Shown here: piece by piece, positions 42,101 through 51,100 of the stretch
Position numbering within the stretch: position 1 is the first letter of the stretch
Layout of the letters: every line of letters begins with the position of its first letter
DNA from: Desulfobacterales bacterium
GTDB lineage: Bacteria; Desulfobacterota; Desulfobacteria; Desulfobacterales; UBA5852
DNA: 64,000 nt
Assembly: GCA_963674755.2 (NCBI GenBank)
Contig: CAXXVS010000003.1
Span: 2,304,001 to 2,368,000, forward strand
Reading direction: 5' to 3'
Program-made: the position numbers

Positions 42101-45100
42101 GCTTCCACCGCGGCCGTTCGGTTGGGCACCGGGTAGAATTCGACCGCCATGCCCAGCTTGGCCGCCAGCAGATCGCGGAAAGCGCCGAATTCGCGCTGCA
42201 GCATTTCCAACCCTTCGATGTCCGTAACGGCGATACGCAAGGTTTCCGTAGCTGCGATGCCGTGGTGTGGAACCCCTGCCCATGTGGCGGCAAGGACAAG
42301 CAGAACGAAGATCATCGTGGTTGCTCTTTTCATCTGTGTCTCTCCTTATGGGATGTCTGTTGGGGGATGCACCGGGAGGCGCTAGGACGGTAATGATCAA
42401 CTCCCGGCCGATGGCTACCGAGACTGCCGCGCCCCTGTTAATCGAACATGAGCCTAACGTTAGCTTCATATCTGCTTAACTGATTTATTTTTATAAGGTT
42501 TATAAAGAATTCTTATATGCGGAGGCGCGACCGGCGTGGACTTTACCTTGAAACAGCTTCAGGTGTTCGTGGCCGTGGTGACCCATGGCAGCACCCTGGC
42601 CGCATCACGAACGCTGCACCTCTCCCAGCCCGCGGTCAGTGCGGCGTTGGCGGAATTGGAGAACCATCTCGGCTCGGCCCTTTTCGACCGTTGGAAAAAA
42701 CGGCTGGTGCTCAACGAAAGGGGCCGCGCCCTGCTTCCCATGGCCCGGCTCCTGCTGGCCAATGCCCACGATCTGGGCCAGATGTTCGGGAGCGGAGACC
42801 ATCAGGTAGGCGGGGTTCTACGCCTGGGCGCCAGCCTTACGATGGCCAGCTACATCCTGCCGGATGTCCTGTCCGCCTATACGGCGGCGCATCCCTCGGT
42901 GAAGGTGGAGGTGGTCTGCCGCAACAAGGTTGGAATTCTGGCCCAGGTGGAGGATTTTTCCATCGACATCGGTTTGGTTGCGGGCACCGGCAACACCGCC
43001 CAACTGGAAAGCCGCCCCTGGCGGACGGATGAGCTGTGTGTGTTTGCAGACGCGGGCCATCCATTGGCCGCAAAACCGCGCGTGACAGCGGCCGATTTGG
43101 CGCAAAGCCAGTGGATATTGAGGGAGGAGGGTTCCGGTACGCTGGAAGTCTTCCGGAACGCATTGCCGCCCGGAGGCCTGCCGATCAGGCCCGTTATGGA
43201 ATTTGACAATCCCGAATCCATCAAACGGGCGGTTGAAGGCGGCCGTGCGCTTAGCTGTCTTTCCCGTGCGGCCGTGACGCGCGAGGTCGAGGCCGGGCGG
43301 TTGGCGATCCTGCCCACGCCCTATCTCGATTTGCGCCGCGCCTATTTTCTGCTGGTCCACCAGCGGCGATTTCAGAGTCCGCTACTGGAGTCCTTTTTAA
43401 GCTTTTGCTGCGCCCTCGCGTCCATATAGAAGATGGGATGCGCGGCTGCCATCCGGCAGTTGAAAACGCTAAAGACGCATTGATTCCGACTGCATTGTGG
43501 TTACGTTCTATAAATAGCGAGCATATTGCGAATTTCTTTGCCGCTAGGCTCACCAAATGGATTTCACAAGGTCGTCCGTATTAGGAGCAACTGGCCATGT
43601 CGAGGGATGATATCAAGGTTAAGGACCGCGACGTCCTCCTGTGGGACAACACTACCACCCATCTTAGCCGGTTCTGGCAGGAAGGCCCCTTGGTGCTGGT
43701 TTTCCTGCGGCACTACGGGTGACCATTCTGCCGCGAGCAGGCGGTGCAGTTGCGCCGCAAGGCCAAGGCGTTTCGGGAACTCGGGGCCCAGGTGGTCCTG
43801 GTGGGGCTTGGCACGCCCGAGGAGACGGCCGCGTTCAGGAAGCGCTATGCGATTCCCTTCCCCATGATTGCCGATCCGGAAAAGGCGCTCTACAAGGCCT
43901 TCCATCTTAAACAAGCCTCGGCCGCTGCTTTTCTGTCGCCGGGCATGGCCGTCAAAGGGGTGTCGGCCCTGCTGCGGGGCTACGGCATCGGTTTGCCCAC
44001 CGGGGATGTGCGGCAGCTACCCGGGGTGTTCATCATCGACACGCACGGTGTTATCCGCTACCGCTATTTTGCCGAAGGGCCGGCCGATCACCCGGCACCC
44101 GATGTGCTTCTGGAGAAGATCCGGGCCGATCTGACGACGGCCTGAAATTGCAGCCGCCATCAAGGCGGTGTCTCCCGTGTACGCTGATAGCGCTCCCCGG
44201 CGTGATGAATTCGCAATACGTCTTTGAGAGCGTTGTTATGTCATCTTCGCGTGGGCGGGGATTCCGGCATTTCAGTTTTTTTCGGTCTCCCGCCTTCGCG
44301 GGAGCGACGGTGGGGCGGCTCTTTGCGACATCATCCTCCGATGTCTTTGTTCCGTAATTCGTTGCAGGATCGATGCCGACCGTATACCTGCCCTGGCGGT
44401 CTTCCAAAATCGACCGTATCCATTTGAAATTATTTTTAAAAATGTCATTTTTGTCGTTTTCGTCGCAATCGGCGGCGCGCGGCCTGGGGAGAGCGAATTT
44501 CTTCCCGATCGGGACAAAATTGGGGATAGACAATTAACATATTGAAAATATTATAGAAAATATTTTTCTTCCATCTATATTTTTGCTTGCAATCGGTAAG
44601 AAAAAGTCTATATTCGCGCAAACAGACCGGATGCAAATGCGGTCTGAAAAGCCGGTTTCCCCCGGCGGGCGCCGGATTTCCCAAACTTTTCTATAAAAGG
44701 ACGAACCGAACAATGAGCGTGATACGCAAGCGCAAAGAGCAGCTGATGACCACCCCGGTCCAGGCTGCCCAGGAAGGGGAAGACGACCCTCCCGATCCCA
44801 ACCCGTGTCTGGCCAATGGCATTCCCTTGACCATTGCCAAGCCCGCCGGACGCATCGTCCGGTTCCCCGCCCCGCAGCGTGCCGTGGTTCCGAACCCGGC
44901 CACCCGATCCTTTCGCAAAAAGCATTTCGCCCACGTACCGACCAAACTCTGGAATGACTGGCAGTGGCAAACCAGCCACCGCATCCGCTCCCTGGCCCAG
45001 CTGGAGACGATGATCGTCCTGTCGGACGAGGAACGGGCCGCCTTTGCACGACCGGACACGGCCCTGCCCCTGGGGATCACGCCCTACTACATGAGCCTGG

Positions 45101-48100: not shown

Positions 48101-51100
48101 AGACGTTACGGCCAATGCGGTTTTTTCCCTGCTCAAGTCCCGCGCGGACGGGCTGGGGGGCGTATGCTTCGCCGAGCGCTTCGTCGCGGGCCGCGAGTTC
48201 AACCTCTCGCTGCTGGCCGGGCCCGCAGGGCCCGAAGTGCTGCCCCCGGCGGAGATCATTTTCGAGGGGTTCCGTGACGACATGCCCCGTATCGTGGACT
48301 ACCGGGCCAAGTGGGATGCCACGGCCTTCGCATACCACCACACGCCCCGGCGGTTTGACTTCGCCACCGCCGATGACGATCTTCTGAAACGTCTGAAGGC
48401 CCTGGCGCGGCAGTGTTGGGACCATTTCGACCTGCGGGGCTATGCCCGGGTGGATTTTCGGGTGGACGACGCCGGCCGGCTCTGGGTGTTGGAAGTCAAT
48501 GCCAACCCCTGCCTGGCGCCCGACGCCGGTTTTGCCGCGGCGCTGGAGCGGGCCGCAATTCCTTACAACGCAGCCATCGAACGGATCGTGGCCGACGGGT
48601 TGGCTGCGATCGGATGCGATGTCCCGGGCCGACGGAGCATCCATGGGATCGGGGCACAGGCAAGCCAGGCCGCTTGACCGCCCTTGTTGACTGATCTGCC
48701 TGGATCATGATGGGGAACCGCGATGGGTTTCGATGCCTTGATAACCGTGGTCGTTTTTCTGGCGGTCTATGTGTGTATCGCCTTTGAGTGGCTGAACAAG
48801 GCCATTGCCGCCCTGCTGGGGGTGATGGCCCTGCTCATTATGGGAGTGATCGACGATCACACCGCGGCCAGCTATATCGACTTCGAGACCATCATGCTGC
48901 TGATCGGCATGATGGGAATCGTGGCCGTTTTGAAAAAAACCGGCTTTTTCGCCATGACGGCCGTGCGCATCGCCAAATTGACCGGCGGGCAGCCCCTGCG
49001 GATCCTGGTGCTCTTCTGCGCGGCCACGGCGGTCATATCGGCCTTTCTGGACAACGTCACCACGGTTCTGATCATGGTGCCCATCATCATCGAACTGACC
49101 CGCGGCATGGGCCTGGATCCCAAGACCTACGTGGTGGCTCTGGCCATGGCCTCCAACCTGGGCGGAACGGCCACCCTGGTGGGCGATCCGCCCAACATCA
49201 TTATCGGGTCCATGGTGGGGCTGACCTTCAATCAGTTCATCGTCTATCTGATCGTCCCCGTGATGTTGGCCACCGTTGTCGTGATCGCCTATTTCCATGC
49301 GCGCAATCGCGAAAGCTTCCTGCCCATCGACAATGACCTGACCAAACTCTTCTCCGTGCAACTCCTCATCGAGAAGATCGAATTCGATTTCCGGACGGTC
49401 AAAATCGACCGCGTCTTCCTGACCAAGAGCCTGGCCTGTCTGGGGGTGGCCATTCTGCTGTTTGTCAGCCAGACCGTGACCGGTCTTTCACCGGGCGTGG
49501 TGGCCTTGACCGTGGCGCTGGTGCTGTTCATCATCACCCGGACGGAAATCGAAGAGATCCTGCTGGAGATCGAGTGGAGCACGCTGCTGTTTTTTGCCGG
49601 TCTTTTCATCCTGGTGGGCGCCATGGAACATAAGGGCGTCATCGCCTGGCTGGCCAACAACATTTTCCTGCGGGTCGGCGACAATCCTTATGTCATGACC
49701 CTGATGGTGCTGTGGGTGTCCGGCATCGTGTCGGGTTTCATGGACAACATCCCGTTTACGATCACCATGATACCCATCGTCCAAACCATGCTGGCGGCCC
49801 ATCCCGTGCCTCACCATATTCTGTGGTGGGCGCTTTCCCTGGGCGCCTGTCTGGGGGGCAACCTGACCCTGATCGGGGCCTCGGCCAACATCATTTCCGC
49901 GGGCATGCTCAAGAAGTACGGGTACGACATCTCCTTCGGCGCCTACACCCGCAAGAGTGCCCCCGGGGCCCTTCTTTCCCTGTTCATCAGTTCCATTGTT
50001 TTGATGGTCTATCTCTGGATCTTCCAATGAGCAGCCAAGACAACCAAAATCTTTATGACCTGATCCGGTCGTATATGGCCGAAATGGGGACATCCCGAAC
50101 CACGGAGGTGGCGCTCAAATCCTATATTGACGCCGTGGGACGTCTCAAATGCGATGCCGCCGACTTCAAACCCATGCTGACCAGGCTCAACGAGGTCATT
50201 AAAAACACCGAGCCCCGGGTGATCCCGCTGGTGCATCTGGTGGAGACGTTCGAAGCCGAAATGGCCGCCGGAACCGATCTTCCCCTGGAGGCGGCCAAGC
50301 AGCGGGCGATGGATCTGCTGAACCGGATACGCGTCCAATTCCAAGACGCTACCGCCCGGGTGACCGCCAACTGCCTCACCTGCATCGCGCCGGGGGATCT
50401 GATCATCGCGCATCTGCTCCCTCCCTATATCCGCGAAGCCCTCGTGCGGGCCCGGACGGAACTGGGGCATGCCTTCAAGGTCCTGGTGGTCAAACAGGAT
50501 TTCGTGCGGACGCGCGAATTGGTGGACGATCTGAAGACGCATCATATCGATCATCTTCTGATTCCCGAATACAACCTCAGCCATTACCTGAAAGGGTCGG
50601 CCAAATTCTTTACCGGCGCGGTATCGGTGACGCCGGACAACCAGGCCGTAACGCCTGTCGGTACGGCGAACATGGTCGGTCTGTGCCACTGGTATCGCGT
50701 GCCCGTCTATCTCTTTATCGAATCCATCAAATTTGCGCACAAGCCCCTGGCGGATCAGCGCATCTACAGCGAAGCCCAGGTGAAAACCGAAGCCGACGTA
50801 ACCTTTCACATGGCGACCTTCTCCCACGACTTCATCGATCTGGCGATGATCGATCACATTTTCACGGAGAAGGGGGAAATTGCCGGCCGGAGCGGCGCGC
50901 CGGGCTCCCCGGAGCAGGGGGGCTGATCTTCACATCTGAGGATTGTCATCCCGCATTTTTTCTTTCCTGTGAAAGAAAAAATGAACATGTAAAAATTTCT
51001 GAAAACAATATTCTATCATTCCCGCGCAGGCGGGGATCCTTTTTTTTAATGGGTATGGGACTCCAGCCTTCGCGGGAGTGACGGCATGGGGGCTTACGAA

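Follow-up and report, generated by a model that had tools for sequence, protein, structure and literature searches.

We describe a conserved gene cassette that joins a KamA-family aminomutase, two ATP-grasp ligases (Lig1 and Lig2) and a GNAT acetyltransferase (GNATc), and that, with a probability of about 0.65, encodes a self-contained cytoplasmic pathway to a putative small acetylated β-lysine amide. No published description of this cassette was found in the literature. Our example lies in the window, a 64,000-nt stretch of contig CAXXVS010000003.1 from a Desulfobacterales bacterium, in the following arrangement.

44527..44614, + strand: A+T-rich, promoter-like stretch (four overlapping sigma-70-like matches)
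44713..46026, + strand: KamA aminomutase, 437 aa (ORF reading)
46116..46637, + strand: YkgJ-type CxxCxxCC protein, 173 aa (ORF reading)
46597..47613, + strand: Lig1, Ddl-like ATP-grasp amide ligase, 338 aa (ORF reading)
47613..48677, + strand: Lig2, second, more divergent Ddl-like ATP-grasp amide ligase, 354 aa (ORF reading)
48723..50030, + strand: CitMHS / ArsB-NhaD-type membrane transporter (Pfam CitMHS, 293.3 bits)
50027..50926, + strand: IF-2B-family protein, 299 aa (Pfam IF-2B, 60.7 bits)
51018..51047, + strand: terminator-like hairpin followed by T8 (consensus match only)
51173..53425, + strand: GNAT/acetylpolyamine-amidohydrolase-like deacetylase/GNAT fusion, 750 aa (Pfam domains)

The initial annotation had reported a four-gene unit at 44713–48677, and four tightly packed plus-strand ORFs are indeed present there: KamA is separated from the YkgJ-type gene by 89 nt, the latter overlaps Lig1 by 41 nt, and Lig1 overlaps Lig2 by 1 nt. 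Sigma-70-like matches, all of them consensus matches only, number nine in the region against 3.2 expected, and four fall within 44527..44614, about 100 nt 5' of the KamA start. The hairpin at 51018..51047, with a stem of eight pairs (five of them G–C) followed by CCTTTTTTTT, probably marks the end of a six-gene transcript. Two RNA libraries contain short contigs nearly identical to the genes for KamA, Lig1, the transporter and the IF-2B-like protein; these give a weak indication that the module genes are expressed, as DNA carry-over is possible.

The cassette is conserved well outside this genome, as had been proposed. Our comparison covered 80 loci found with Lig2, of which 69 extend for 2.6 kb or more upstream of Lig2 and 63 for 2.5 kb or more downstream, with room on both sides in 58. 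KamA is present upstream of Lig2 in 68 and Lig1 in 65 of the 69 loci, a linkage of the three genes far beyond chance. The three-enzyme core recognized earlier thus stands, but a conserved fourth member had been overlooked: a GNAT is encoded 3' of Lig2 in 60 of 63 loci and was not seen near Lig2 in L023 and L029. KamA, Lig1, Lig2 and GNATc occur together in 52 of the 58 loci, and KamA, Lig2 and GNATc in four more; of 12 regions with room from a second phylum, 9 contain all four genes, and the cassette is present in 59 of the 301 genomes of a phylum sample. Lig1 is missing in 4 of the 58 loci and in five clusters among all 80, with one stub, which suggests that the product is not uniform. Where the ligase pair stands apart, a close KamA (54–68% identical) and GNATc (46–54% identical) are encoded elsewhere in all three genomes with usable data. 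No further recurring gene family was found around the cassette in the 80 loci.

Natural fusions all keep the gene order, being KamA–Lig1, Lig1–Lig2 or Lig2–GNAT. KamA–Lig1 fusions, which back the earlier proposal that the aminomutase feeds the ATP-grasp ligases, make up 35 of 60 long KamA homologues, none of which is a KamA–Lig2 fusion; among 150 Lig2 representatives, 30 are Lig2–GNATc and 10 are Lig1–Lig2 fusions. The cassette GNAT occurs free, fused to Lig2, or as the C-terminal part of a GNAT/acetylpolyamine-amidohydrolase/GNAT protein, and in 41 of 63 loci it carries a fused acetylpolyamine-amidohydrolase-like domain.

In the window, the gene for this last form (51173–53425) is displaced by 2.5 kb by the transporter and IF-2B-like genes. 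Its homologue lies directly 3' of Lig2 in most loci, and the acetyltransferase that is conserved in the cassette corresponds to the GNAT at its C-terminus. The two intervening genes are a lineage-specific local insert: apart from the window, only its closest relative (L005) has the transporter at this site, L084 has a 29% homologue 3' of GNAT, and 77 of 80 loci lack a transporter. The IF-2B-like gene overlaps the transporter gene by ATGA and is translationally coupled to it; its product scores only 35.1 bits against ribose-1,5-bisphosphate isomerase (cut-off 314). The YkgJ-type protein (Pfam PF03692, 26.6 bits; cut-off 23) has six invariant Cys and a nearly invariant seventh in 22 orthologues and is fused to Lig1 in two cases (P0284 and a 538-aa ORF in L058). 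It belongs to the operon in the window, as annotated, but not to the conserved set, and is regarded as an accessory member because only 19 of 69 loci contain it.

KamA is most likely a lysine 2,3-aminomutase that makes β-lysine, as judged by its sequence. The NCBIfam scores reported earlier for KamA, Lig1 and Lig2 were all reproduced exactly. KamA reaches 498.4 bits for AblA (cut-off 525.4), 430 for Glu-2,3-aminomutase (650), 390.8 for Arg-2,3-aminomutase (600) and 248.3 for EpmB (369.3), and passes the KamA subfamily model (344.2; cut-off 199.2). It falls below the AblA cut-off mainly because its match stops at position 360 of the 417 in the model. Alignment to the solved lysine 2,3-aminomutase (LAM) 2A5H extends over residues 71–430 (480.8 bits). 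KamA lacks the C-terminal part of the clostridial LAM; it retains the Cys motif CxxxCxxC, the PLP lysine in GGGGK and, opposite D293 and D330, both Asp residues that we take to hold the lysine ε-amine. Lysine is the predicted substrate on the basis of these two residues. The β-amino acid foreseen by the initial annotation is supported, but its open-ended choice of substrate is not, since both ε-amine Asp residues are kept. In a quick tree, KamA falls into a cassette-specific clade, apart from the canonical, ablB-linked AblA, which has its own clade (SH-aLRT 99); the KamAs of the cassette are not monophyletic in it, as four second-phylum rows lie near AblA, with one long branch.

Lig1 and Lig2 resemble Ddl and the ATP-grasp L-amino-acid ligases in their three-domain fold (TM 0.7–0.8) and in keeping the ATP, Mg and acyl-phosphate residues, and the expected chemistry would likewise convert an amino-acid carboxylate and an amine into an amide. 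The closest folds to the AF2 model of Lig2 (pLDDT 88.5) are Ddl, with TM 0.7–0.8 at 20–25% identity; Lig1 matches Pfam Dala_Dala_lig_C with 77.4 bits and is 70–90% identical across many genera. The ATP-grasp catalytic set is kept in both ligases (aligned to Ddl K144, K215, R255, D257, E270 and N272). Unlike Ddl, however, they form a non-identical pair whose genetic partner is an aminomutase and not the cell-wall genes, share 20–30% identity with Ddl, and score 151.4 (Lig1) and 86.6 (Lig2) against the Ddl model NF002378 (cut-off 243). The D-Ala-binding residues of Ddl are replaced in both, partly by conserved acids, which fits cationic substrates: in Lig1, Y216 is replaced by E and L282 by an invariant Asp (D301), and in Lig2, which has a conserved PD motif, Y216 is replaced by W and S281 by A.

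The 750-aa fusion carries a Pfam Hist_deacetyl domain (248.7 bits, residues 266–571) between a weak N-terminal GNAT (53–150) and GNATc (633–727). The middle domain is closest to the acetylpolyamine amidohydrolase (APAH) structures 6PHR (246.5 bits) and 3Q9B (217.6), with HDAH at about 129 and below; its HH, D..H, GLD and EGGY motifs are present, and the catalytic His–His, Zn ligands and Tyr of APAH are kept. Unlike APAH, it has a GNAT domain on either side and is linked to a β-lysine cassette. GNATc has the QGRGLG acetyl-CoA motif; its best named family is RimI (50.8 bits, below the cut-off of 86.4), and it scores 15.9 bits against AblB (cut-off 205.1). It matches PDB 2R7H with 157.7 bits over 160 residues. 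Compared by title and sequence match, 2R7H is, unlike GNATc, a stand-alone 177-aa protein, likely orthologous to the cassette acetyltransferase where this is free-standing. The union of acetyltransferase and deacetylase in one protein would seem futile, unless the two are regulated or have different nitrogens as their targets.

In the proposed pathway, KamA would convert L-lysine into β-lysine by radical-SAM/PLP chemistry, a step well supported by homology; the steps after it we infer as follows. Lig1, assigned to the next step because it lies directly behind KamA in fusions and in gene order, would use ATP to form an acyl-phosphate and then the first amide bond involving β-lysine, and Lig2 would form a second. 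The RimI-like GNATc, often fused behind Lig2, would acetylate a free amine with acetyl-CoA and lower the net positive charge. Where present, the middle domain of the fusion would take an acetyl group off an alkyl-amine, as its resemblance to acetylpolyamine amidohydrolases suggests, and so allow turnover or switch acetylation on and off. Since no further enzyme is conserved with the set, its remaining building blocks would have to be common metabolites or more β-lysine, and the YkgJ protein may be an optional helper. The physiological role, the weakest part of this reading, is most likely stress protection, for instance as a compatible solute. A point against the reading is that no tie to salt is seen: the DNA occurs in samples from rhizosphere, marsh and sea without distinction.

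AblA and AblB (NCBIfam TIGR03820/TIGR03827) make the osmolyte N-epsilon-acetyl-β-lysine in methanogens and some bacteria. The cassette likewise couples a lysine 2,3-aminomutase of the same subfamily level to a GNAT acetyltransferase, and its likely output is also a charge-reduced β-lysine derivative. That KamA and the GNAT simply perform this synthesis, with the ligases on an unrelated job, is nevertheless very unlikely. KamA does score near the AblA model, the fourth conserved gene is a GNAT, and the cassette (59/301) and AblB (12/301) co-occur only in this genome, the pattern expected of alternative routes to similar products, although this overlap (one observed versus about two expected by chance) is not significant. 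However, GNATc is far from AblB in score, and a true AblB (290.9 bits) is encoded elsewhere in this genome, so that a simpler β-lysine fate exists beside the cassette. Moreover, two ATP-grasp ligases stand between aminomutase and GNAT and are fused to both, no such fusion joining KamA with this GNAT; the ablB-linked AblA has its own clade; and the acetylpolyamine-amidohydrolase-like domain often attached in the cassette is a further difference. A cell-wall function, in which the ligases would supply peptidoglycan with an alternative depsipeptide or dipeptide of the D-Ala-D-X kind, is hardly credible, even though all sources call them D-alanine--D-alanine ligase, their nearest solved folds are Ddl and 2R7H is titled putative D-alanine N-acetyltransferase. 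Both lie far below the Ddl cut-off and have lost the D-Ala-binding residues, their obligatory partner is an aminomutase, and mur, van and racemase genes are not recurrent nearby; the genome's true Ddl lies elsewhere (G000:C2:2090336-2091259; 343.1 bits, above the cut-off), which agrees with the earlier separation of the module from it.

Two further readings concern the fate of β-lysine. The ligases could attach it, or a residue added onto it, to the terminus or a side chain of a protein, and the GNAT and deacetylase would regulate this as an acetyl switch; protein modification is known for ATP-grasp enzymes, RimK among them, RimI is a protein N-terminal acetyltransferase, and proteins are also deacetylated by HDAC-family enzymes. 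Such a modification would resemble EF-P β-lysylation or RimK-type tailing. We consider it unlikely: a conserved candidate target gene next to the cassette is lacking across the 80 loci, the deacetylase domain is nearer to small-molecule APAH than to protein deacetylases (HDAH), the nearest relatives of the ligases in sequence and fold are Ddl, a free-amino-acid ligase, and the RimI match stays below its cut-off. An exported secondary metabolite, namely an antibiotic-like or metal-binding β-lysine peptide made without an NRPS and leaving through the adjacent transporter, is equally improbable. Streptothricin-class and tuberactinomycin antibiotics are built with β-lysine, dipeptide antibiotics are built by ATP-grasp ligases, and the operon contains the CitMHS-type transporter both in the window and in L005, with the distant one in L084. 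Yet the other 77 loci have no transporter, resistance, regulator and tailoring genes are not recurrent in the neighbourhoods, and the cassette is vertically widespread, with Lig1 highly conserved, unlike patchy, fast-evolving antibiotic clusters.

The preferred reading, a pathway to an acetylated β-lysine amide, has a parallel in N-acetylglutaminylglutamine amide (NAGGN), a dipeptide solute made without ribosome or NRPS. In its pathway, Ngg, a fused GNAT and ATP-grasp ligase, yields an N-acetylated dipeptide osmolyte, and the Lig2–GNAT fusions would follow the same logic. The Ngg pathway differs from the cassette in its glutamine building blocks, the lack of an aminomutase, another domain order and an amidotransferase partner.

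The genome also encodes a KamA paralogue at C3:1767678-1768727, equated by position only with g05040, which had been named the likely EpmB; its score of only 188.3 on the EpmB model (cut-off 369.3) speaks against this name, and the EF-P family is absent among the genes scanned around it. The paralogue adjoins genes for an MlrC-like peptidase and a peptide-type binding protein.

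The initial annotation placed a KamA-family 2,3-aminomutase (KamA), a YkgJ-type protein and two divergent ATP-grasp ligases related to D-alanine–D-alanine ligase (Ddl) at 44713-48677, and all four are found there on the + strand, with every Pfam and NCBIfam score reported for them reproduced. The genes are separated, in order, by an 89-nt gap, a 41-nt overlap and a 1-nt overlap. The features of the region are as follows.

Features of the cassette region (window positions)
44713-46026, + strand: KamA-family aminomutase, 437 aa
46116-46637, + strand: YkgJ-type CxxCxxCC protein, Pfam PF03692
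46597-47613, + strand: Lig1, Ddl-like ATP-grasp ligase
47613-48677, + strand: Lig2, Ddl-like ATP-grasp ligase
48723-50030, + strand: CitMHS-type transporter, downstream of Lig2; MamN is its best NCBIfam match (207 bits, far under the cut-off)
50027-50926, + strand: divergent IF-2B-family protein, 299 aa; its gene overlaps the transporter gene by ATGA and is translationally coupled to it
51018-51047: hairpin followed by T8
51173-53425: 750-aa protein with a weak N-terminal GNAT domain, a Hist_deacetyl domain and a strong C-terminal GNAT domain (GNATc)

Four promoter-like matches lie within an A+T-rich stretch about 100 nt upstream of KamA. No sigma-54 promoter was seen there when the sequence was inspected by eye, and an Rfam scan of 40000-56000 revealed no riboswitch upstream of KamA, the sole match being a chance miRNA model (E 0.42). 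The upstream stretch 39844-44145 encodes a phosphonate-type ABC transporter (permease, ATPase and binding protein) on the - strand. It also carries genes for a LysR regulator (42536-43429) and, at 43744-44145, for a redox protein related to SelL (101.6 bits, cut-off 120); none of the neighbours in this stretch is conserved together with the cassette.

To define the conserved unit, 80 loci encoding Lig2 relatives were fetched and the window proteins were mapped onto them. In 69 of them the sequence reaches 2.6 kb or more upstream of Lig2; of these 69, KamA is encoded in 68, Lig1 in 65 and the YkgJ-type protein in 19. At the downstream side, a GNATc homologue is found in 60 of the 63 loci whose sequence continues for 2.5 kb or more beyond Lig2, and is accompanied by the deacetylase and the N-terminal GNAT domain in 41 of these 63. 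The proposed module of an aminomutase and two ligases is thus conserved, but the true unit also takes in the acetyltransferase, while the YkgJ-type protein is an occasional member. Of the 58 loci that extend far enough in both directions, 52 contain all four components (KamA, Lig1, Lig2 and GNATc), and a further four contain KamA, Lig2 and GNATc without Lig1. All-against-all clustering of 915 ORFs revealed no other recurrent gene family near the cassette. Among the 80 loci, the transporter and IF-2B-like pair occupies this position in none but the window and L005, its nearest relative, indicating a lineage-specific insert that has moved the ligases and the GNAT/deacetylase/GNAT gene apart. In a protein atlas, the cluster of the IF-2B-like protein is bacterial, with 130 members, for the most part from Thermodesulfobacteriota.

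Departures from the full set were also examined. In the genomes of five clusters lacking Lig1, only paralogues 29-35% identical to Lig1 were found. One of the five (L072:7807-8016) retains a 67-residue Lig1 stub (residues 3-69, 66% identical) between KamA and a Lig2–GNAT fusion, directly before Lig2, indicating that Lig1 was lost recently in that lineage. Three genomes with a solitary ligase pair gave usable data, and all three encode close copies of KamA (54-68%) and GNATc (46-54%) elsewhere; a fourth, represented by a short contig, contains a close copy of neither. In an even sample of the phylum of the window, a Lig2 relative (E <= 1e-40) is present in 59 of 301 genomes, about a fifth. Matches were likewise obtained in 31 of 201 sampled genomes of a second phylum, that of the genome carrying locus L040, which is labelled Planctomycetota (E <= 1e-30). 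Of 16 regions fetched from it, 12 extend far enough to either side; nine of these carry all four genes, and one carries the full deacetylase fusion. Clusters of look-alike proteins in the protein atlas are labelled Pseudomonadota, Gemmatimonadota and Aminicenantota.

Gene fusions provide our strongest evidence that the four enzymes act in one pathway. Among the 150 best representatives of 50% identity clusters of Lig2, 107 are single proteins, 30 are Lig2–GNATc fusions and 10 are Lig1–Lig2 fusions. A parallel census of 60 KamA homologues of at least 766 residues yielded 35 KamA–Lig1 fusions, two Lig1–KamA fusions and two proteins with a GNAT domain before KamA, and no KamA–Lig2 fusion; two YkgJ–Lig1 fusions were also seen. 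The main fusions therefore match the gene order KamA, Lig1, Lig2, GNAT, with the two Lig1–KamA and two GNAT–KamA proteins as exceptions, and this order suggests that the KamA product passes to Lig1 first. Long KamA homologues of other kinds also occur. In five of about 770-790 aa (P0309, P0313, P0315, P0334 and P0335), the aminomutase is split by intein/homing-endonuclease domains (PF05203, PF14528, PF14890), and three from eukaryotic sources (P0311, P0312 and P0323; one from Paratrimastix pyriformis) are N-terminally extended, with an extension that is GNAT-like in P0323 and weakly Lig1-like in P0312.

KamA aligns with the solved lysine 2,3-aminomutase (LAM; 2A5H) at 480.8 bits. Its CSTYCRYC and GGGGK segments align with the radical-SAM CxxxCxxC motif and the PLP-binding lysine of 2A5H, respectively, and the aspartates aligned to D293 and D330, which we take to bind the epsilon-ammonium group of lysine, are retained (YQCD and VVDAPGGGGK). 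KamA passes the subfamily model (344.2 versus 199.2) and falls below the AblA equivalog cut-off (498.4 versus 525.4), largely because the protein stops soon after the core, the match ending at model position 360 of 417. An asparagine replaces C268 of 2A5H, and the chain ends ahead of the C-terminal part of LAM, which presumably carries the remaining zinc-site cysteines. Judged from these residues, KamA most likely converts L-lysine to beta-lysine, the only step of the proposed pathway with close homology behind it. In a quick tree, the window KamA belongs to a 72-member clade made up of cassette-linked sequences (SH-aLRT 99), and four AblA genes adjoining ablB form a separate clade (99). Four cassette KamAs of the second phylum are placed elsewhere, so the quick tree does not make the cassette KamAs one clade.

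The two ligases are distinct from the cell-wall enzyme, as had been proposed: Lig1 and Lig2 score 151.4 and 86.6 on the Ddl model, as compared with a cut-off of 243 and with 343.1 for the real Ddl of this genome. They share only 20-30% identity with Ddl structures, and Ddl is the fold nearest to the Lig2 model, which was predicted with confidence (pLDDT 88.5). When 86 Lig1 and 96 Lig2 sequences were aligned to the genome's own Ddl, the ATP-grasp catalytic residues (K144, K215, R255, D257, E270 and N272 in what we take to be the Ddl numbering, here and below) were found to be conserved in both ligases, whereas the D-Ala-binding residues (Ser150, Tyr216 and Ser281-Leu282) are replaced. In Lig1, Tyr216 is replaced by Glu, Leu282 by an invariant Asp and SS by TG, with the equivalents of Glu15 and Ser281 kept. 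In Lig2, Tyr216 is replaced by Trp and Ser281 by Ala, the latter preceded by a conserved Pro-Asp. The retained catalytic set and the altered D-Ala-binding residues indicate that Lig1 and Lig2 should be active ligases of new specificity, and their substrates are probably cationic. The YkgJ-type protein passes the gathering score of PF03692 (26.6 versus 23); C9, C19, C20, C86, C94, C105 and C125 are invariant and C12 nearly so in 22 orthologues. Prediction of a YkgJ–Lig1 complex gave a score of 0.00, which is no answer and weighs neither for nor against such a complex.

GNATc keeps the acetyl-CoA motif and matches an unpublished GNAT structure (2R7H) at 157.7 bits. It scores below the cut-off of RimI (50.8 versus 86.4) and far below that of the curated GNAT_ablB model (15.9 versus 205.1). 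The deacetylase domain is well supported by Pfam Hist_deacetyl (248.7 versus 27.9) and is nearest to the acetylpolyamine amidohydrolases (6PHR, 246.5 bits). It contains the motifs GHHA, DVDYHHGNG, GLD and EGGY, which we take to represent the catalytic His-His pair, the Asp/His/Asp zinc ligands and the Tyr of the HDAC family; derivatives of N-acetyl-beta-lysine are its obvious candidate substrates.

A true AblB is encoded on another contig (C2:2232136-2232930, - strand; L118:8113-9030), with a GNAT_ablB score of 290.9 bits versus a cut-off of 205.1. Its gene is the first of an amino-acid ABC-transporter operon (ATPase, family-3 solute-binding protein and two permeases), and no aminomutase lies beside it. 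AblA adjoins AblB in four of five other AblB genomes of the phylum that were examined. AblB is likewise an orphan in genome G206, which belongs to the same taxonomic order as the window. No other AblA-like gene accompanies the window KamA in this genome, and KamA may therefore supply both the cassette and the AblB route. The cassette and AblB occur together only in this genome in the phylum sample; about two overlaps are expected by chance and the relatives are not independent, so the overlap is not significant and we draw no conclusion from it.

Taken together, linkage, fusions and active-site conservation support the following as the most likely course of the steps that follow KamA. KamA itself would convert lysine to beta-lysine, Lig1 and then Lig2 would each form an ATP-dependent amide bond, and N-acetylation would come last, yielding a small acetylated beta-lysine amide; the deacetylase may serve in turnover or as a switch. 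That the product acts as a solute or protectant is guesswork. The likeness to the NAGGN synthetase Ngg is one of logic. The DNA turns up in rhizosphere, marsh and marine samples. Two RNA libraries contain short, near-identical contigs, a weak hint of expression; their share is low (0.06-0.07), the uncovered parts carry no meaning, and contigs of this kind do not reveal operon structure.

Other readings of the cassette fare less well. Synthesis of plain N-epsilon-acetyl-beta-lysine, the osmolyte made by AblA and AblB, is contradicted by the failure of GNATc to reach the AblB score and by the neighbourhood, as no ablB lies beside the window KamA. A cell-wall role of the ligases is likewise contradicted, both by their Ddl scores below the cut-off and by their replaced D-Ala-binding residues. 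Modification of a protein by the cassette is less likely than the synthesis of a small amide, since the neighbouring genes include no conserved target and the closest likeness of both the deacetylase and the ligases is to enzymes that act on small molecules.

A bolder version of the acetylated-amide model is that the product is a short beta-lysine oligoamide, for example beta-lysyl-beta-lysine joined through side-chain amines, which would act as a polyamine analogue with its charge set by the GNAT/acetylpolyamine-amidohydrolase/GNAT switch. We consider this unlikely. The genome has no match to nspC, and it contains a SpeE-like gene (198.8 bits versus a cut-off of 249.55), so ordinary polyamine synthesis cannot be taken as absent in weighing a polyamine substitute. 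If true, the oligoamide would represent a new class of polycation in cells, one that would be common among anaerobic bacteria and would need neither polyamine enzymes nor the ribosome or NRPS for its synthesis.

The known fates of beta-lysine in cells are those of an intermediate in fermentation, a modification of EF-P, a building block of antibiotics and, once acetylated, an osmolyte. The cassette points to one more, undescribed fate; no description of it was found in the searchable full text, which excludes subscription literature, and two apparent leads, PMC12316311 (a COG list) and PMC12419801 (the author name Kamada), proved irrelevant. Most enzymes of the cassette are mislabelled as cell-wall D-Ala-D-Ala ligases, and identification of the product would mend a very common annotation error, yield two new ATP-grasp specificities for beta-amino-acid ligation and bring to light a metabolite of which sulfate reducers, like other anaerobes of sediment and soil, may contain large amounts. 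With acetyltransferase and deacetylase fused in one protein, the idea of an acetyl switch built in to act on a small molecule can be put to the test.

Two further loci in the genome resemble KamA. The gene g05040, which we equate by position with C3:1767678-1768727 (L119:5676-6749), had been regarded as a likely EpmB, an assignment at odds with its EpmB score of 188.3 versus a cut-off of 369.3. This second KamA-family gene is 42% identical to the window KamA, scores below the cut-offs of the Arg-, Glu- and Lys-aminomutase models (354.5, 336.6 and 333.8, respectively), and is placed after genes for an MlrC-like peptidase and a peptide/nickel-type binding protein. The other, at C2:1472977-1474644 (L003, L004), is an 827-aa frame that matches KamA weakly in two separate places (32% and 25% identity), as though it comprised two tandem radical-SAM aminomutase-like domains.
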